From a virus (lineage: Duplodnaviria; Heunggongvirae; Uroviricota; Caudoviricetes), in the IMG/VR virus record IMGVR_UViG_3300011226_000028: a DNA stretch of 9,262 bases; one strand, 5' to 3'. Positions within the stretch are counted from its first letter, which is position 1; every line of letters begins with the position of its first letter. The position numbers and the translations under genes were made by a program. Of this stretch, positions 1 to 9,262 are shown in pieces. Under the pieces are notes generated by a model, which saw only the letters and a list, made by a program, of their open reading frames with translations, had not been told where the DNA came from and made no database searches.

Positions 1-4
1 TCAT
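1..4 (-). CDS. Start of a leftward gene that runs off the left edge of the window (only the start codon is visible); identity unknown, possibly the next gene of the P4-like left operon
   Basis: Reverse complement of 1-21 reads TGA-AGGAGAACAACACC-ATG-A: stop of the 106-aa ORF, an AGGAG Shine-Dalgarno, about 9 nt spacer, then ATG at 4..2. Confidence 0.3.
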
Positions 5-18
5 GGTGTTGTTCTCCT

Positions 19-339
19 TCAGTGCAGTACCGGCGCTTTTATGTGACGGGCACAGAGTTCATCCATCACAACCAGCCCGAGAAAGGACAGCGACGGCGCG
101 GCCTTCAGGGGGCCGGATTCCATTAAATCTTCCAGCAGGGCACAGGCTATCTGACGCCCTTTTTCCTCACCGTGCTGGCGCAGATAAAAGCCCTCCAGCT
201 CAGCGGCGATGGCCGCCTCCAGTGATTCAAGGGTGAGATGCGGGTAGCGGTGCTGATGTTCGCACACGGTCAGCCAGGCACAGGCGACAGCACGACGGTA
301 AAGGGCTGCGCGTAAGACGGGCGGTAAGGGTGTTTTCAT
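19..339 (-). CDS. Hypothetical protein, 106 aa, in the leftward operon of the P4-like element
   Basis: ORF in the track; ATG at 339 preceded by GGGAGG about 8 nt upstream on the minus strand; GC-rich like neighbouring genes; same strand as adjacent genes. Confidence 0.6.
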
Positions 340-474
340 TTGCTTTCCTCCCTGTGACAGATGACTGCATTCCGTGCCGGTTGCATTAACTGATAAGGCA
401 TATCTGCGTCTCCTGAAGACGTGCGTATCCCTGCGCGAATACGCACATTTAATTTTTCGGGTGTCGTTTTTTAA

Positions 475-930
475 TTACAGATAATTGCGGTAACTGTTAT
501 CCGGGGTGGTTTCCGGGTCAGGCTCCATGCGGGGAATTTCCCGCCATTCCCGCGCCACCGGTGCCGCCCGGCTGGCCGGAACAGTGTCCTGCGGGTAAAT
601 ATCCAGATATTTCTCCCGCCATTTCTGTAATTCCGGGTCTCCGGCCATTTCTTTCAGTACCGCATGCCGGTTTACGGGGCTGCGTTTGAACAGGTCAGGA
701 CGGTCACAGGTAAATTCCCGCAGAAAACGCCCCAGCGGGATGTCTGTGGTGCGCCCGTCAGCGAGGATACGCACAAGGATACTGAATTTACGGCGGTACG
801 GGTTCCAGACAATGTCCGGGCAGCGGTACGGCATTTCCCACGGAATACCGTCTTCCAGAATGCCGACCACGGCCACATCGGGAAAACCGGCAGAACGGTA
901 AATCTCACCGGGCTGGGGAAAATCAAACAT
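475..930 (-). CDS. Hypothetical protein, 151 aa, in the leftward operon
   Basis: ORF in the track; its ATG (930..928) overlaps the stop of the upstream 95-aa ORF in an ATGTTTGA arrangement, suggesting translational coupling. Confidence 0.6.
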   Translation of the reverse strand: MFDFPQPGEIYRSAGFPDVAVVGILEDGIPWEMPYRCPDIVWNPYRRKFSILVRILADGRTTDIPLGRFLREFTCDRPDLFKRSPVNRHAVLKEMAGDPELQKWREKYLDIYPQDTVPASRAAPVAREWREIPRMEPDPETTPDNSYRNYL

Positions 931-1210
931 GCGTCCTGTCTCCCCGGTCTTTCTGCTGGGCGAGAAAATCGCGGCACAGGCCTTTGGCTTTCAGCTCATT
1001 CAGCACAAAATCAATATCTTCATTCAGGTAGCTGAAAATATGCGGAATGTAGAGCTGATGCAGGCCGGAGAGTTCACGGTGAATCAAATCACCCCCAACA
1101 AACTGGGATACGGCGCTGGCGCGGTTGAGCTTATGGTAAGCCTCAATGCTGAGGTGTTCACGGGCGTCATGACGCGCTGAGACGGTCTGAGGGGCTTTTT
1201 TATTACGCAC
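923..1210 (-). CDS. Hypothetical small protein, about 95 aa, probable GTG start
   Basis: Minus-strand frame [40 protein letters not shown]...; GTG at 1210..1208 preceded by GGAGG with a 6-nt spacer; this start overlaps the stop of the upstream 65-aa ORF. Start is inferred, no ATG available in frame. Confidence 0.45.
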
Positions 1211-1400
1211 GGGACACCTCCACCACCGGCAGACGGGCAGCAAGGGAGAGCACATAGTCACGGACAAGGGAACGGCGGGCACTGCGTTCATCACCGGCGA
1301 CGGTGCGAAGCATGCAGATACGGGGATGACGGTCTGCGCGACGGACAGCCGCAAACACAAAGACAAATTCAGGGTGTGAAGGGGTAAGGGTTGTAGCCAT
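1203..1400 (-). CDS. Hypothetical small protein, about 65 aa ([12 protein letters not shown]...VVEVSRA)
   Basis: Internal ATG (1400..1398) of the 211-aa track ORF, preceded by AAGGAGA about 8 nt upstream; stop TAA at 1205..1203 overlaps the GTG of the next gene. The longer 211-aa version is rejected. Confidence 0.35.
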
Positions 1401-1789
1401 AAGGCAGTCTCCTTCGAGTAGCAAATAACTGCTATCGCCGGAGTTCTCACGCTCGATGGCGATAGCCCAGACGGGGGTGAGAATACCGGCCTCGAAGAAT
1501 ACCGGCCAGCCCGGAGGCTGCCCCGCCTGAGCTACCATTGACTCAGTGGCATAACATGCGATTGCGAACAGGATCATACCTGCACGGCAAACCACACGCC
1601 ACACCATAATCTGGCGCTCTGTGGCGTTGATTGCGACACAAAAAAAGACGCATGGCGCGTCATATGTCGCCTTCGAGTTACACGGGTTCTCACGCCCGGC
1701 TGCCGATTTTGCGGCAGCGGAAAAACTATATCCGCAAATGCCGGAAAAAGGCAAGCCAGAAAAAGGGAGTTTTTGCAGAGCGGGCATCA

Positions 1790-2056
1790 TCATGCGTCGT
1801 ACCCCCGTTTGCGTCCGGCAATGCGCCCGGCCATCCATGCGGTGATTTCAGAGTGCAGCCAGGCCACATTTTTACCGCCAAGACTCACCTGCGGCGGAAA
1901 TTCCCCCTTACGGATGAGTTCATAGATGGTCGAGCGTGACAGGCCGCACAGGTGCATCACTTCCGGCAGACGTAAAAAACGCTCCTGCGTGATGTCCGGC
2001 AGCGGCATCAGTGGCGTCACAGGGGCAGGAGACGGGGAAGAAAAAACAGCTTGCAT
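1790..2056 (-). CDS. vis: AlpA/Vis-family small DNA-binding regulator (P4 Vis-like excision/regulatory protein), 88 aa
   Basis: Motif [27 protein letters not shown] is typical of AlpA-family helix-turn-helix prophage regulators; 88 aa as I recall for P4 Vis (orf88); GAGG Shine-Dalgarno about 8 nt upstream; position at the head of the leftward operon, divergent from sid. Confidence 0.7.
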
Positions 2057-2093
2057 CGGGCTACCTCGTTAATGTCCATACAGCACCGGATAA

Positions 2094-2103
2094 NNNNNNN
2101 NNN
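2094..2103. other. Run of 10 N (unknown or masked bases) in the intergenic region upstream of the vis-like gene
   Basis: Literal n characters in the sequence. Confidence 1.
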
Positions 2104-2324
2104 CGCTTTATTTTGTGAATATTTTCAGCAGACGCAACAGGGGGGATTTGTTCCGGTAGCCTTACAATGGCTGTGTGTTTTTTATCCATCTGGACTGGAA
2201 GGGTCTCAAAGGGTTCTGAAGGACCTGGAATTTTTTATAGTGAAATACAAATTGTTTTTTCTTATTTATTTCAGTGAATTAATAAAAATAAAAAGTAATA
2301 AACAGCACAAAAAGTCCATGAGCG

Positions 2325-2429
2325 GGTGAACAGTGGTGAACAGACGGTGAACAGTCATTACTGCGATTGTTCACCCTTTAACTTACTGTATTACTTATCT
2401 TTTTTATTAAGGTGAACAGAGGTGAACAG
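2325..2429. repeat. Iteron cluster resembling the P4 crr/ori-type alpha-protein binding repeats (octamer TGTTCACC)
   Basis: GGTGAACAG (reverse complement CTGTTCACC) occurs five times directly (2325-2333, 2335-2343, 2346-2354, 2411-2419, 2421-2429), plus one inverted copy TGTTCACC at 2368-2375; flanked by very AT-rich DNA (2200-2320, 2380-2460). Confidence 0.6.
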
Positions 2430-2508
2430 TAAAATATAAAAAAAACAAACAGTAAGCCGGTTTTTCCTGCGACCTTTTCCTGGCTTGCCGGTCTGAGGAT
2501 GAGTCTCC

Positions 2509-2526
2509 TGTGTCAGGGCTGGCACA
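2509..2526 (+). promoter_or_regulatory. Putative late promoter activator site (TGT-N12-ACA dyad) of the sid promoter
   Basis: TGT gtcagggctggc ACA at 2509-2526, about 80 bp upstream of the sid ATG, consistent with the P2/P4 late-promoter element bound by Ogr/Delta and centred near -55. Confidence 0.5.
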
Positions 2527-2598
2527 TCTGCAATGCGTCGTGTTGCTGTCCGGTGTACGTCACAATTTTCTCAACCTGAAGTGACGAGGAGCCGGAAA

Positions 2599-3333
2599 AT
2601 GTCTGACAACACCATCCCTGAATATCTGCAACCCGCACTGGCACAACTGGAAAAGGCCAGAGCCGCCCACCTTGAGAACGCCCGCCTGATGGATGAGACC
2701 GTCACGGCCATTGAACGGGCAGAGCAGGAAAAAAATGCGCTGACGCAGGCCGACGGAAACGACGCTGACGACTGGCGCACGGCCTTTCGTGCAGCCGGTG
2801 GTGTCCTGAGCGACGAGCTGAAACAGCGCCACATTGAGCGCGTGGCACGCCGGGAGCTGGTACAGGAATATGACAATCTGGCCGTGGTGCTGAATTTTGA
2901 ACGCGAACGCCTGAAAGGGGCGTGTGACAGCACGGCCACCGCCTACCGGAAGGCACATCATCACCTTCTGAGTCTGTATGCAGAGCATGAGCTGGAACAC
3001 GCCCTGAATGAAACCTGTGAGGCGCTTGTCCGGGCAATGCATCTGAGCATTCTGGTACAGGAAAATCCGCTCGCCAACACCACCGGCCATCAGGGCTACG
3101 TCGCACCGGAAAAGGCTGTCATGCAGCAGGTGAAATCATCGCTGGAACAGAAAATTAAACAGATGCAAATCAGCCTCACCGGCGAGCCGGTTCTCCGGCT
3201 GACCGGACTGTCAGTGGCAACACTCCCGCACATGGATTATGAGGTGACAGGCACACCGGCACAGCGCAAGGTGTGGCAGGACAAAATAGACCAGCAGGGA
3301 GCAGAGCTGAAGGCCAGAGGACTGCTGTCATGA
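2599..3333 (+). CDS. sid: P4 Sid-like external capsid size-determination scaffold protein, 244 aa
   Basis: ATG at 2599 with GAGGA about 9 nt upstream (the track ORF starts earlier at 2533); MSDNTIPEYLQPALAQLEKARAAH...; position immediately upstream of delta and psu in the conserved sid-delta-psu order; stop overlaps the delta start (ATGA). Confidence 0.8.
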   Translation: MSDNTIPEYLQPALAQLEKARAAHLENARLMDETVTAIERAEQEKNALTQADGNDADDWRTAFRAAGGVLSDELKQRHIERVARRELVQEYDNLAVVLNFERERLKGACDSTATAYRKAHHHLLSLYAEHELEHALNETCEALVRAMHLSILVQENPLANTTGHQGYVAPEKAVMQQVKSSLEQKIKQMQISLTGEPVLRLTGLSVATLPHMDYEVTGTPAQRKVWQDKIDQQGAELKARGLLS

Positions 3334-3830
3334 TTTACTGCCCGTCGTGTGGACATGTTGCTCACACCCGTCGCGCACATTTCATGGACGATGGCACCAA
3401 GATAATGATTGCACAGTGCCGGAATATTTATTGCTCTGCGACATTTGAAGCGAGTGAAAGCTTTTTCTCTGACTGTAAAGATTCAGGAATGGAATACATT
3501 TCAGGCAAACAGAGATACCGCGATTCACTGACGTCAGCCTCCGGCAGTATGAAACGCCCGAAAAGAATGCTTGTTACCGGATATTGTTGTCGGAGATGTA
3601 AAGGCCTTGCACTGTCAAGAACATCGCGGCGTCTGTCTCAGGAAGTCACCGAACGTTTTTATGTGTGCACGGATCCGGGCTGTGGTCTGGTGTTTAAAAC
3701 GCTTCAGACCATCAACCGCTTCATTGTCCGCCCGGTCACACCGGACGAACTGGCAGAATGCCTGCATGAAAAACAGGAACTGCCGCCAGTACGGTTAAAA
3801 ACACAATCATATTCGCTGCGTCTGGAATGA
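3330..3830 (+). CDS. delta: P4 Delta-like late transcription activator (two tandem Ogr-type zinc-finger domains), 166 aa
   Basis: Begins MIYCPSCGHVAHTRRAHF... (Ogr-like Cys cluster) and contains a second copy ...YCCRRCKGLALSRTSRRL...YVCTDPGCG; ATG overlaps the sid stop; lies between sid and psu. Confidence 0.8.
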   Translation: MIYCPSCGHVAHTRRAHFMDDGTKIMIAQCRNIYCSATFEASESFFSDCKDSGMEYISGKQRYRDSLTSASGSMKRPKRMLVTGYCCRRCKGLALSRTSRRLSQEVTERFYVCTDPGCGLVFKTLQTINRFIVRPVTPDELAECLHEKQELPPVRLKTQSYSLRLE

Positions 3831-3903
3831 GGGCTGCCGGTTAACACCGGCCGTCGCCGCACACCGTATTTTTATTCTTCAGCATGATGAGAAAGAGATA
3901 ACG

Positions 3904-4139
3904 ATGGAAAGCACAGCCTTACAGCAGGCCTTTGACACCTGTCAGAATAACAAAGCAGCATGGCTGCAACGCAAAAATGAGCTGGCAGCGGCCGAACAGG
4001 AATACCTGCGGCTTCTGTCAGGAGAAGGCAGAAACGTCAGTCGCCTGGACGAATTACGCAATATTATCGAAGTCAGAAAATGGCAGGTGAATCAGGCCGC
4101 CAGTCGTTATATTCGTTCGCATGAAGCCGTTCAGCACAT
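3904..4139 (+). pseudogene. psu: psu (P4 polarity suppression / capsid decoration, Rho inhibitor), 5' fragment interrupted by IS3
   Basis: MESTALQQAFDTCQNNKAAWLQRKNELAAAEQEY...HEAVQHI then runs directly into the IS3 terminal inverted repeat at 4140. Confidence 0.8.
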
Positions 4140-4169
4140 TGATCCTACCCACGTAATATGGACACAGGC

Positions 4170-5036
4170 CTAAGCGAGGTTCTGGTTTTCAAATTGTTCC
4201 GGACTGAGGCCGCCACACCAACTGTGCCGCCGCCACCGATTGTAATCACATTCGATATAATTAAACACCGTTGCCCGCATTATTTCCCGGCTGATAAAGT
4301 GTTCTCCATGGATACATTCCACTTTCAGCGAATGAAAGAAGCTTTCCACGCAGGCATTATCGTAGCAGCAACCTTTTGCGCTCATACTTCCACGCAGATT
4401 ATGCCGCTTCAGTTGCGCCTGATAATCTGCTGAACAGTACTGGCCTCCACGGTCCGTGTGAACGATAACGTTCCGGGGCCTCTTACGCCGCCACAGCGCC
4501 ATCTGCAGGGCATCGCAGGCCAGTTGCGCCGTCATGCGTGGCGACATTGACCAGCCAATAACGGCACGTGACCACAGGTCAATGACCACTGCCAGATACA
4601 GCCAGCCTTCATCTGTACGTAAGTACGTGATGTCTCCTGCCCACTTCTGGTTCGGGCCACTGGCGTAAAAATCCTGCTCCAACAGATTTTCTGACACAGG
4701 CAGGCCGTGTGCGCGGTAGCTGACCGGGCTGAACTTCCGGGAGGCCTTTGCCCTCAGTCCCTGACGGCGCAGGCTTGCCGCCACGGTTTTTACGTTAAAG
4801 GGGTAACCCTGAGCACGCAGTTCATCCGTCAGGCGTGGGGCACCGTAACGCTGTTTTGACCGGGTAAAAGCCGCGAGGACAACGCTGTCGCAGTGTTGGC
4901 GGAACTGCTGACGCGTGCTTATCCTTGTCCGCCGCTGACACCACGTATACCAGCCGCTGCGGGCCACCCGGAGCACGCGGCACATTGCTTTGATGCTGAA
5001 CTCAGCCTGATGTTTTTCAATAAAGACATACTTCAT
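4170..5036 (-). CDS. insF: IS3 OrfB (DDE transposase catalytic component; normally made as an OrfAB fusion by -1 frameshifting)
   Basis: 288-aa ORF with DDE-type motifs ([27 protein letters not shown]); overlaps orfA in the -1 frame as in the IS3 family. Confidence 0.85.
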
Positions 5037-5341
5037 TTCAGGCGCTTCGCGAAGTATGTCGCGGCCTTTTGGAGGATAGCCAGCTCTTCATCCCGTTCTG
5101 CCAGCTGGCGTTTGAGACGTGCAATCTCGGTAGACATCTCCAGTTCACGTTCAGAAGACGTCTGCTGATTTTGCTGTTTACTGCGCCAGTTGTAGAGCTG
5201 TGATTCATACAGGCTGAGTTCACGGGCTGCGGCAGTAACACCGATGCGTTCAGCAAGCTTCAGGGCTTCACTGCGAAATTCAGGCGAATGCTGTTTACGG
5301 GGTTTTTTACTGGTTGATACTGTTTTTGTCATGTGAGTCAC
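5033..5341 (-). CDS. insE: IS3 OrfA (helix-turn-helix transposase N-terminal component)
   Basis: [52 protein letters not shown]... matches IS3 OrfA as I recall it; leucine-zipper-like C-terminus; stop overlaps the orfB ATG (ATGA). Confidence 0.85.
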
Positions 5342-5396
5342 CTCTGACTGAGAGTTTACTCACTTAGCCGCGTGTCCACTATTGCTGGGTAAGATC

Positions 5397-5737
5397 ACAT
5401 CAGCATCCGCGACCGGCTGAATGATTTTATGCAGCAGCACGGCACAGTACTGGCGGCCGCACTGGCACCGGAGCTGATGGGCTACAGTGAGCTGACGGCC
5501 ATTGCCCGAAACTGTGCCATACAGCGTGCCACAGATGCCCTGCGTGAAGCCCTCCTGTCCTGGCTTGCGAAGGGGGAAAAAATTAATTATTCCGCACAGG
5601 ATAGCGACATTTTAACGACCATCGGATTCAGGCCTGACGCGGCTTCGGTGGATGACAGCCGTGAAAAATTCACCCCTGCGCAGAACATGATTTTTTCGCG
5701 TAAAAGTGCGCAACTGGCATCACGTCAGTCTGTGTAA
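5397..5737 (+). pseudogene. psu: psu, 3' fragment downstream of the IS3 insertion
   Basis: In-frame translation from about 5402 reads SIRDRLNDFMQQHGTVLAAALAPELMGYSELTAIARN...ASRQSV; the track ORF 5429..5737 is its ATG-initiated portion. Confidence 0.75.
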
Positions 5738-5772
5738 AATTCCCCGAAAATCCGCCTGTTTTTACTGAAAAA

Positions 5773-5799
5773 AGCCATGCATCGATAAGGTGCATGGCT
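5773..5799 (+). terminator. Putative intrinsic (possibly bidirectional) terminator hairpin downstream of psu
   Basis: Perfect 9-bp stem AGCCATGCA / TGCATGGCT with a 9-nt loop, preceded by an A run and followed by TT...GTTTT. Confidence 0.4.
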
Positions 5800-5901
5800 T
5801 TGCATGCGTTTTCCTGCCTCATTTTCTGCAGACCGCGCCATTCCCGGCGCGGCCTGAGCGTGTCAGTGCAACTGCATTAAAACCGCCCCACAAAGCGGGC
5901 G

Positions 5902-5920
5902 GGCGAGGCGGGGAAAGCAC
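5902..5920. other. P2/P4-type cos site (19-nt cohesive-end sequence)
   Basis: GGCGAGGCGGGGAAAGCAC matches the P2/P4 cohesive-end sequence as I recall it; GC-rich context, located just past psu as in P4. Confidence 0.6.
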
Positions 5921-6016
5921 TGCGCGCAAAAGGGGGGGCTATTAAATTTTTCTCTGGCTTGATGAATGATAACCAAACCAGAGAGGGCATGAGCTTTACG
6001 GAGTTTTATCAAGTAA

Positions 6017-7779
6017 TTATTGCGATGCGTCTTCTTTTAAAGCGATGCTTTGTTCTAAAGCTTCTTTTATGCGTTTAACGCATTCTGTTAGTTCAATTAT
6101 GGCTCCGCGTCGAAAAGAACTGTTAATTTTTTTATGATGAGCGTTTATGGCTGAATGTAGCTTCTTAAGGTATGGTAGTTCAGCAGAAAGGTAGTCCGCA
6201 AGATTTGAGAAGTTATAGAGTGATGATAGATGGTTTGAAAACAACTGAATATCGCGAATGGACCAAGTGTTTTTTATTCCATGTATGATTAGGTTTACAT
6301 CTAATGTTTCAAGTGGATTAAATTTGAATTTTGATTGATAAATATCCATATCAATAGCACTCCAACCGTTAACATTCATTTTTTCTTTCAATTCTTTTAT
6401 TTTCTCCTCCTTTATTATATCGCAATATTTATCAAGGAAGTAATTATGAAGTTCATTTCCTTCTCTCCTTAATATATGTGGTGGAATATTATCAATGTTG
6501 GGATTTGATTCTAGGAAATATTCTTTTATTTCTTCATTACTAAAGCTACGTTTGTTTTTTTCAATGGTTTTGTTGGTTAACCCTCTTATGCGAGGGATGT
6601 ATTTTGATTTTGAGAGTCTAATATAGTTGTTTGTAGCGATTAGCCAAGTAGATAGTGTCGGTGATGAAGTTTTTAGTATTACTTTTTTAATTTCATCCAA
6701 ATAATCATTTTCAGGTATATTATACCATTCCGGTTGTTTTAATGTGGCATAATCACTTTTTTTTAAAGGTTCTTGTGAATTGAATATGTATGGAATTATA
6801 TCCTTTTGAGATATCTCATTAAAACAATATGGAACCATTAAGTTGTTATAAGTCATATGAGCAGTGATATTTAAAAGGTTACTCTCTTCTTCGCTTATTT
6901 TATCTGGATCATTCTCAGATGAAGTCGTAAGTGTTTTGAAAGAAGATGTGATATAATTATGATGAAAATCATTCTCTTGATATGAAAATTTCTCTTTTAG
7001 TATTATATGAGCACAAAGTGAAGTGACTAGGTTTTTGATGTCTATATCAGAGATTTTTTGCTCAGGTTCTTGTTTTTCAAAAAGAGGTGTCAATTTTGAA
7101 ATTACTCTATTAATAATTCGTAGGTTTGTTTCTTCGAACCCAATAATAACCTGAGTGATTAAATATTTATGTCTCTCTTCTAATGGAGCCAGTTTTTGCT
7201 CTAATATATCGGTAAGGTTATTAATAGAGAAATATATTTCGTCGCTTACAACTTTTTCTTTATGACTTAATACCTCACTACTCTGCTTTGAAAAGTTACC
7301 CACTAAAATAAAGTCTAACCGATTATCATTTTGATAACTTTGTAGGCAAAAGGTTGCTATTTCATCTCTCAAAGATTGAGGGATTCTTTCTAGATCATCA
7401 ATGACAAAAACNNNNNNNNNNNNNNNNNNNNNNNNNNNNNNGCACCTGAAATGGTAGATATAATTTGTTCTGTCAACTTTCCAGTGCTTTCGTCTTGGGT
7501 TAATGCTGATGCAGCGCTTGAGGTTAAATCCCCAAGTTTTTTTATCTCTGAAGGGGTGTTTAGATACGTTATGCTTAGCATTCTATCTTTAAAATCTTGT
7601 AAACTGTTTAACCCAAGAACAGACAAATAAAAATGACTCGTATCTGAATAAAGTGTTCTAAATTCAGTTCGAAGGAAATATGTCTTACCTACACCCCATT
7701 CCCCATTTATTAATATCAGACCATCACGTTTCTCTTTCAATATACGAATCAATATAGATACTATAGTACCTTTGGTCAT
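6017..7779 (-). CDS. KAP-family P-loop NTPase, about 587 codons, interrupted by a 30-nt N run; candidate anti-phage defence cargo gene
   Basis: Walker A in the KAP-characteristic form GEWGVGKT (N-terminal ORF 7390..7779) and Walker B-like VFVIDDLER just downstream of the gap (extension of ORF 6017..7372); AGGAG with a 5-nt spacer before the ATG at 7779; strongly AT-rich (about 25% GC in a spot count) compared with flanking genes. Confidence 0.7.
7412..7441. other. Run of 30 N (unknown or masked bases) inside the KAP NTPase gene
   Basis: Literal n characters; the reading frames on the two sides differ by one position, so the true gap length is probably not 30 nt. Confidence 1.
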
Positions 7780-7808
7780 AAAAAGCTCCTTTCAAAATTC
7801 CATTATGA

Positions 7809-8984
7809 TTATTTTATTTTTGGATAAAGTAAGTCACTATACCACTGCATCATATGTAATCTTTTCTCTAAATATTGAGCATGATTATAAGTACCTCTTA
7901 TACTGTTTTTATCAACATGTGCTAATTGCATCTCAATCCATGCACTATCAAATCCATGTTCATGTAAGATTGTCGATAATGAATGTCTAAAACCGTGACC
8001 TGTAGCACGTCCTTTGTAACCAAGTAACTCAATTACTTGAGATACGCTTTCTTTTGAAATTGGTTTGCTACGATTGTTCCTTCCAATAAATATGTAGGGG
8101 TAATGGCCGGTAATAGGCTTGAGTTGTTCGAAAAGGGCAATTACCTGAGTAGATAAAGGAACAATGTGTGGCCTACGCATTTTCATCCTTTCTGCAGGTA
8201 TTTCCCATATGCCTTTCTCAAGATCAACCTCATTCCAAGTAGCCAAACGCATTTCCTGCGTTCTAACGCCGGTCAGCATAACTATCTTAGTAGCATTTTT
8301 AGTAATGATACTTCCGGTATACGCTTCCAAATCCTGAATGAAATGAGGTAGCTCTTCAGCGGATAAAAAAGGATGATGTTTTTGCTTAGGAACAGCCAGA
8401 GCGATGGCTAAATCAGGCGCAGGATTGTATTCAGCACGGCCAGTTATGATCGCATAGCGGTAGACTTCACCACATCTTTGCCGCACTTTTCTGGTCTTCT
8501 CTAATGCCCCACGCTTTTCTATTCTTCGCAATACTTCGAGCAGTTCTAATGGTTTAATTTCACTGATAGGGCGTTTACCAATGAAAGGGAATACATCTTG
8601 CTCAAAAGTCTTCATAATTTCTTCTCGATAGGCCACCGTCCAGCGGTCAGCTTTGTTGGTATGCCATTCTCGACATATTGCTTCGAAAGAATTTTCTGTT
8701 GATAGCTTTTGAGCGAGTCTTAAAGCTTTGCGTTCCTCTACTGGGTCAATGCCATTAGCAACCTGCTTACGGGCGATGTCACGCTTCTCACGTGCTTCTG
8801 CGAGGCTTACTAAATCATAGCTGCCAAATGACATTAACCGCGCTTTCCCAGCAAATCTGAAACGGAAACGCCAGCCTTTCGTGCCATCTGGATTGATAAG
8901 CAACGACAGACCTTGTCCATCGTTCAATGTGTATGGCTTGTCTTGTGGTTTTGCACGTTTGATCTGTGTATCGGTTAGAGCCAT
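7809..8984 (-). CDS. int: P4-type tyrosine integrase (phage integrase family), 391 aa
   Basis: N-terminus MALTDTQIKRAKPQDKPYTLNDGQGLSLLINPDG... typical of P4-like integrases; C-terminal catalytic region GHGFRHSLSTILHE...GTYNHAQY (R, H-x-x-R, Y); adjacent to the 3' end of a tRNA gene. Confidence 0.9.
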   Translation of the reverse strand: MALTDTQIKRAKPQDKPYTLNDGQGLSLLINPDGTKGWRFRFRFAGKARLMSFGSYDLVSLAEAREKRDIARKQVANGIDPVEERKALRLAQKLSTENSFEAICREWHTNKADRWTVAYREEIMKTFEQDVFPFIGKRPISEIKPLELLEVLRRIEKRGALEKTRKVRQRCGEVYRYAIITGRAEYNPAPDLAIALAVPKQKHHPFLSAEELPHFIQDLEAYTGSIITKNATKIVMLTGVRTQEMRLATWNEVDLEKGIWEIPAERMKMRRPHIVPLSTQVIALFEQLKPITGHYPYIFIGRNNRSKPISKESVSQVIELLGYKGRATGHGFRHSLSTILHEHGFDSAWIEMQLAHVDKNSIRGTYNHAQYLEKRLHMMQWYSDLLYPKIK

Positions 8985-9036
8985 GTGTATAACTGAAAAC
9001 TATGTATAAAAAATCTATACACATTACTATACATAT
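8983..9036. promoter_or_regulatory. Cluster of TATACAYAT 9-mers in both orientations over the int start and upstream region; candidate Int/Vis or repressor binding sites and int promoter
   Basis: ATGTGTATA (8983-8991), TATGTATA (9001-9008), TATACACAT (9016-9024) and TATACATAT (9028-9036); AT-rich. Confidence 0.4.
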
Positions 9037-9146
9037 TTTTCGCGGATTCAGGGAGATGATCTCGGACTATTACGGACAAGCTGATTATTCATCGCATTGA
9101 ATATAAATGATTTTATGGAGTGTCTCGGAACTGGCTGGATGAGGTT

Positions 9147-9241
9147 TGGCGGAAGATCACAGGAGTCGAACCTGCCCGGGACCGCTGGCGGCCCCAACTG
9201 GATTTGAAGTCCAGCCGCCTCACCGGAGACGACGATCTTCC
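9147..9241 (-). tRNA. selC: tRNA-Sec (selenocysteine tRNA, selC), 95 nt, serving as the integration site
   Basis: Reverse complement reads GGAAGATCGTCGTCTCCGGTGAGGCGGCTGGACTTCAAATCCAGTTGGGGCCGCCAGCGGTCCCGGGCAGGTTCGACTCCTGTGATCTTCCGCCA, matching the E. coli selC tRNA as I recall it, including the long variable arm and 3' CCA; the integrase gene lies beyond its 3' end. Confidence 0.9.
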
Positions 9242-9262
9242 GCGCCTCGATTGCTACATGGA

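Follow-up and report, generated by a model that had tools for sequence, protein, structure and literature searches.

The satellite prophage and its gene content

The DNA analysed here, a stretch of 9,262 nt referred to throughout as the window, carries a set of P4-type genes, a cohesive-end (cos) site, a single cargo gene, an integrase gene and a tRNA gene. The members of the P4 core set that fall within the window are sid, delta, a psu gene disrupted by an IS3 copy, int and the C4 RNA; outside the window lie the alpha primase gene, crr and the left att site. The features on which the analysis rests are listed below, with positions given in window coordinates.

19-339, minus strand: orf106
475-930, minus strand: orf151
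1455-1542, minus strand: C4 immunity RNA (Rfam)
1641-1718, minus strand: isrK (Rfam)
1679-1731, minus strand: a1/b1 target sites (Rfam)
1790-2056, minus strand: orf88
2094-2103: run of N
2599-3333, plus strand: sid, a P4 late gene upstream of psu
3330-3830, plus strand: delta, a P4 late gene upstream of psu, with two Ogr_Delta zinc-finger matches
3904-5737, plus strand: psu, interrupted by IS3 (halves 3904-4139 and 5401-5737)
4140-5397, minus strand: IS3 copy of 1258 bp, seen as an alignment gap against P4 and strain DAX4, with rve and HTH_Tnp_1 domains
5867-5870: additional conserved TGCA directly left of the cos core
5873-5927: 55-bp P2/P4 cos core
5883-5902, minus strand: GC-rich inverted repeat (arms CCGCCC / GGGCGG, loop of 8 nt), adjoining the nick site, from a consensus scan
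5901/5902 (top strand) and 5920/5921 (bottom strand): predicted terminase nicks
5902-5920, plus strand: 19-nt cohesive-end sequence (cosN)
5928-7808: variable cargo slot (the P4 psu-int hotspot), occupied in P4 by the unrelated genes gop/beta/cII
5940-5951: A/T-only tract TATTAAATTTTT
6017-7779, minus strand: cargo gene, an AAA/KAP-type P-loop ATPase
7412-7441: run of 30 N
7809-8984, minus strand: tyrosine integrase of 391 aa (Arm-DNA-bind_3, Phage_int_M and Phage_integrase domains), bounding the cargo slot
9147-9241, minus strand: tRNA-Sec (selC), the integration site (ARAGORN; Rfam, 83.8 bits)

Two blocks of the window align with P4 itself. Positions 1-4139 are 96.4% identical to P4 6966-11123, and positions 5396-5901, which make up the 506 nt left of cos, are 98.2% identical to P4 11119-11624. 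The last base of the P4 record (11624) aligns to window position 5901 and window position 5902 corresponds to P4 nucleotide 1, and cos lies 165 nt past the psu stop codon, as it does in P4. Rfam scores above threshold were obtained for the immunity RNA of P4 (the C4 antisense RNA), for isrK and for the a1/b1 sites, and the immunity region of the satellite looks intact. In relatives, a 32-nt stretch that includes the 3' end of the tRNA recurs 10,746 bp away with 91% identity. The same element, with this cargo but lacking the IS, occupies selC in eleven complete E. coli genomes, ATCC 8739 and DAX4 among them, and the alpha primase gene lies to the left in both of the same-cargo relatives whose annotation was examined. 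Judged by its sequence, then, the window is part of a P4-like satellite prophage at tRNA-Sec (selC), interrupted by IS3 and otherwise P4-like and largely intact.

The cohesive end and the 55-bp core

Sequence search of the whole window found a single exact copy of the 19-mer GGCGAGGCGGGGAAAGCAC, at 5902-5920 on the plus strand. The initial annotation had named this sequence, located within 5881-5940, as the cohesive end of P2 and P4, and the identification proved accurate: the identical 19 nt are annotated as both cosL and cosR in P2 (NC_001895), the linear P4 record (NC_001609) begins with them, and the cohesive end of P2-related phages is printed as GGCGAGGCGGGGAAAGCAC (PMC3931495). By arithmetic, about 7e-8 exact copies would be expected by chance in 9.3 kb of DNA on both strands, and 200 dinucleotide-preserving shuffles of the window yielded a mean of 0.01 matches with three or fewer mismatches per shuffle.

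The 19-mer is embedded in a 55-bp core common to P2 and P4, the description of which is attributed to Ziermann & Calendar (1990) in the passages of PMC3931495 and PMC5694545 that cite it. In the window this core consists of 29 nt to the left (TGCATTAAAACCGCCCCACAAAGCGGGCG), the 19-mer and TGCGCGC to the right, and it is identical to P4 at 53 of 55 positions and to P2 at 52 of 55. The initial annotation had named alignment to the P2 and P4 cos regions, including the flanking determinants, as the check on its claim; when the alignment is anchored on the 19-mer, those determinants are present, both phages being matched over TGCATTAAAACCGCCCC...AAGCGGGCG to the left of it and TGCGCGC to its right. 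The window's core departs from P4 and P2 only at 5890-5892 and 5921, where conservation within the core is lowest. Directly left of the core, the additional TGCA at 5867-5870 is conserved in at least 90% of 36 cos sites and extends the conserved block to 5867-5927; P2-like prophages in E. coli genomes match the window from about 5867-5873 onwards. The predicted nick positions were derived from how the P2 and P4 records start and finish, and staggered cleavage at these positions would give 5' overhangs.

Conservation of cos sites across species

The exact 19-mer was scanned in one genome per species, 596 Gb in total, and 38 matches were obtained. Conserved flanks accompany 33 of them, with 47-54 of the 55 core positions identical to the window, P2 or P4. 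The other five, located mostly in GC-rich unrelated genomes, reach only 26-32 of 55, a figure that includes 19 from the 19-mer itself; they are chance occurrences, in approximately the number expected for that much DNA. When the 36 real cos sites were compiled into a conservation profile, columns conserved in at least 90% of the sites were found to span 5867-5927, and the window agrees with the consensus at all of them. Among columns with a consensus of 75-89%, the window departs at only three, 5866, 5901 and 5946.

Classified by their flanks, the 33 loci from other species comprise 19 P4-like and 14 P2-like sites, and gene searches agreed with this assignment wherever the flank was long enough. 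The P4-like loci have the same left flank as the window; in 11 of them psu ends 165-180 nt before cos, and four further loci show sid or delta. The portal gene Q lies to the right of cos in 13 of the P2-like loci, in two of them 1.7-3 kb beyond it.

The A/T-only tract lies about 20 nt right of the cohesive end. A tract with at least 9 A/T in 12 positions begins between +11 and +24 in 35 of the 36 real cos sites and at +8 in the remaining one (L036), whereas none of the five chance 19-mer matches exceeds 7 of 12 in this region. The A/T-rich tract is thus kept in all 33 real loci, P2 and P4 despite surroundings that otherwise vary, and it could represent a second packaging determinant or a site of DNA bending.

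The inverted repeat at 5883-5902, when read on the minus strand, forms a terminator-like hairpin followed by TTTTAAT, and the cargo and int genes are transcribed on this same strand; the hairpin might stop leftward transcription of these genes from crossing cos into psu. As a conserved structure it was dropped from consideration, the stem being broken in many other cos sites (CCGACC...GGGCAG). Its structural role is doubtful, and the conservation of this region lies in sequence, not in pairing.

The IS3 insertion in psu

The IS3 copy, listed in E. coli genome annotations as "IS3-like element IS3 family transposase", is flanked by a CAT target duplication at 4137-4139 and 5398-5400, the ends of the element having been read from the sequence. 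Together, the two halves of psu amount to exactly 573 nt, their DNA is 94-98% identical to P4 psu, and positions 1-75 of the Pfam Psu profile fall in one half and positions 85-181 in the other. The intact duplication and the exact 573-nt remainder suggest that the insertion is recent. None of the 5,426 complete E. coli genomes searched contains the psu::IS3 junction, and such an insertion is unusual, because P4 and P2 elements are reported to contain almost no transposable elements (PMC13586616). The att repeats of DAX4 are separated by 10,746 bp; if the part of the element left of the window resembles that of DAX4, the element would measure about 12.0 kb, some 3% above the 11,624 bp of P4. 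The disruption of psu and the increased size could each reduce mobility.

Assignment of the site and alternative readings

We conclude that positions 5867-5951 very probably (a probability of about 0.93) constitute the packaging (cos) site of a P4-like satellite that is integrated as a prophage at selC. An origin of the 19-mer by chance in GC-rich DNA is refuted: although flankless exact copies exist, as the five among 38 matches in 596 Gb attest, the expectation for 9.3 kb given above is minute, and the copy in the window is accompanied by the 36 flanking bases of the core and by P4 genes. The site might also be ascribed to a P2-like helper prophage or its remnant, given that the core is common to P2-like phages, some of which match the window out to 5951. 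The context refutes this assignment and leaves it with almost no credence, for the left flank is P4 psu and the DNA downstream of it, 98% identical up to the very last base of P4, and to the right there is no portal gene (Q) of the kind present in P2-like loci but instead the cargo gene and a P4-type integrase gene.

A third reading accepts the cos site as intact and regards the element around it as a decaying, immobile island in which the site survives as an unused relic. The IS3 copy in psu, at a junction seen in none of the 5,426 genomes and in a class of elements described as nearly free of transposable elements, would fit such decay, as would the rise of the predicted size to about 12.0 kb. 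Yet the remaining P4 genes in the window are all full-length open reading frames, 96-98% identical to P4, the immunity RNAs exceed their Rfam thresholds, and the cos core is unchanged at all conserved columns. Moreover, psu is dispensable for P4 growth, and the marks of a recent insertion described above argue against this reading. We therefore regard a relic as improbable, while still the most credible of the three alternatives, and favor a satellite cos site in an island that is probably still mobilisable by a helper phage. The initial annotation had termed this cos "retained": the site is indeed present, and the connotation of a relic is not borne out, since the element is otherwise P4-like and largely intact.

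Predicted packaging and the ends of the linear molecule

A mechanism of packaging can be proposed for the satellite because of the sequence identity of its cos with the functional P2 and P4 sites. Excision and replication of the satellite would take place alongside expression of a P2-like helper in the same cell. The terminase of the helper would recognise the common 55-bp core and introduce staggered nicks, in the top strand at 5901/5902 and in the bottom strand at 5920/5921, and one satellite unit would be packaged with 19-nt 5' cohesive ends. In the resulting linear molecule, psu would lie at the right end, ending 165 nt from it, and the cargo ATPase gene at the left end, at approximately nt 116-1878, transcribed towards that end. 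The proposal of the initial annotation that the cargo gene would occupy one end of the packaged DNA thus follows, as a prediction, from the correspondence of window position 5902 to P4 nucleotide 1. Terminase cutting, packaging and any causal link between DNA ends and cassette turnover are what we infer from comparison of sequences.

The cargo gene

The stop codon of the cargo gene begins at 6017, 96 nt after position 5920, in agreement with the distance of about 100 bp between the cohesive end and the NTPase stop that had been noted initially. In the window the gene appears as two out-of-frame open reading frames, 7390-7779 and 6017-7372, an apparent split that arises because the 30-N mask at 7412-7441 replaces 34 nt present in near-identical relatives. 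Compared with strain DAX4, positions 5396-7411 of the window are 99.3% identical and positions 7442-9262 are 100% identical; at the protein level, the N-terminal piece is identical and the C-terminal piece matches at 450 of 451 residues. Relatives annotate the cargo as a single 588-aa "AAA family ATPase", WP_000160301. As read from these comparisons, the split is a masking artefact and not the mark of a pseudogene.

Pfam searches assigned AAA_22 above threshold (31.9 bits) and KAP_NTPase at a borderline score, and an NCBIfam search of the cargo protein returned nothing useful. PADLOC gave a partial match (1e-14) to the candidate family PDC-S49. We consider the ATPase a candidate anti-phage gene; its designation as a validated defence system is unsupported, the PADLOC match being partial and to a candidate family only. 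A protective single-gene ATPase+KAP system found in P4 hotspots, "Reve", is reported in a 2026 study (PMC13586616).

In E. coli EC596 (L044), the same slot of another P4-like element at selC holds, at 2434-4194, an allele from the family of the cargo ATPase with 63% identity, and the DNA is approximately 78% similar to the window from psu through tRNA-Sec. EC596 was considered as an example of cassette exchange and rejected, the gene being an allele of the same ATPase family and not a different system. The presence of this diverged allele in the same slot implies that the cargo family diversifies in place as well as being swapped.

The variable slot and cassette exchange

The left edge of the variable slot was placed where homology ends and its right edge at the int stop codon (7809). 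When window positions 5780-6060 were used as a query, matches were found in 2250 of the 5426 complete E. coli genomes, and 11 of the 2250 run through the cargo gene. In a sample drawn evenly down the ranking of matches, 28 P4-like matches begin at the query's left end. Of these, 27 terminate within query positions 146-151, corresponding to window 5925-5930, and the remaining one is a same-cargo match in which the whole query is covered. Most P2-like matches in this sample span approximately 5867-5927 or 5873-5927, the core itself, and a few reach 5931 or 5951. The termination of P4-like homology at the edge of the core puts the start of the variable cassette about 8 bp beyond the cohesive end. 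Gene content therefore varies between a conserved cos and a conserved int, which is what defines the psu-int hotspot.

Rousset et al. (2022; PMC9122126) speculated that cohesive ends might serve as a substrate for the recombination by which cassettes are swapped, and retrons that replace DNA beside the cos of a 186-related prophage are the subject of Dodd & Egan (1996), to go by its title. The tight grouping of breakpoints at 5925-5930, no more than about 10 bp from the bottom-strand nick, might result from such a mechanism and not only from selection for cos. Swaps between P4-like elements would then begin at cohesive ends that terminase has cut or that have just been injected, and a second crossover, in int, would complete them; we hold this to be a rather unlikely cause of the pattern. 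Clustering of the breakpoints is compatible in equal measure with end-driven exchange and with simple selection that keeps cos intact, and end-driven exchange, like the view of the initial annotation that the position of the cargo favours cassette exchange, is a speculation already published, not one that originates here.

Comparison with P4, P2 and the known hotspot

Beyond the 19-mer, the core, the position of cos relative to psu and the left flank described above, the P4 cos (NC_001609 / X51522) resembles that of the window in having a non-essential cargo region directly to its right, and gop/beta/cII hold the same left-end place in P4 as the cargo gene does here. The two cos sites differ at 5890, where the window has A and P4 has G, and at 5921, where the window has T, the P2 base, and P4 has C. 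Unlike P4, the window has one ATPase gene in place of gop/beta/cII, a different integrase, which targets selC, and a psu that carries IS3. The P2 cos (NC_001895) and those of P2-like prophages share the core, including the identical 19-mer and the TGCGCGC that follows it, and an A/T tract about 20 nt to the right, whereas their flanks outside 5867-5951 are unrelated, P2 having old/tin to the left of cos and the portal gene Q to its right.

The layout of the window does not differ from that of the P4 psu-int defence hotspot, in which the cargo lies between cos and int and adjoins cos (PMC9122126; PMC13586616). The same cargo is in fact among the P4-encoded loci of Rousset et al. (2022; PMC9122126), where Table S1A lists NC_010468 / AAA_22 / WP_000160301, and the hotspot work is extended, in the account of it that a 2026 study gives, to thousands of P2 and P4 elements (PMC13586616). 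A cos beside the cargo slot is thus real and ordinary, its layout being already published and known from thousands of E. coli genomes, and the present analysis adds nothing new on cos sites or on why hotspots adjoin them. Its value is one of annotation: the island is assigned to a P4-like satellite, the ATPase to a cos-adjacent defence slot, and the frameshift to masking.

Observations on other cos loci

Several of the surveyed loci show features of their own. In the two P2-like loci with a distant portal gene, L024 (cos at 3252, Q at 6438-7454) and L034 (cos at 1850, Q at 3568-4590), an insert of 1.7-3 kb separates cos from Q, on the side of cos opposite the known old/tin hotspot.

Seven loci from Atlantibacter, Klebsiella and Raoultella (L019, L022, L025, L026, L028, L037 and L041) have P4-type left flanks, that of L026 being assigned by sequence only. 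About 60 nt to the right of cos, these loci carry a stretch that resembles the portal-side flank of P2-like phages (...CGCGGCCTGAGCGCGTCG), and a search for the portal gene within the seven loci did not find it. In these genera, the cos homology common to satellite and helper seems to exceed 55 bp.

Finally, enterobacterial cos regions of P2 or P4 type were encountered in contigs assigned to Gram-positive organisms, namely L011, L027 and L036, from metagenome-assembled genomes of Bacillota, Clostridiales and Lachnospiraceae, and L017 and L034, from Vagococcus sp. WN89Y. The sid, delta and psu genes of L027 are 97-99% identical to those of P4, and these contigs probably represent mis-binned or contaminating DNA.
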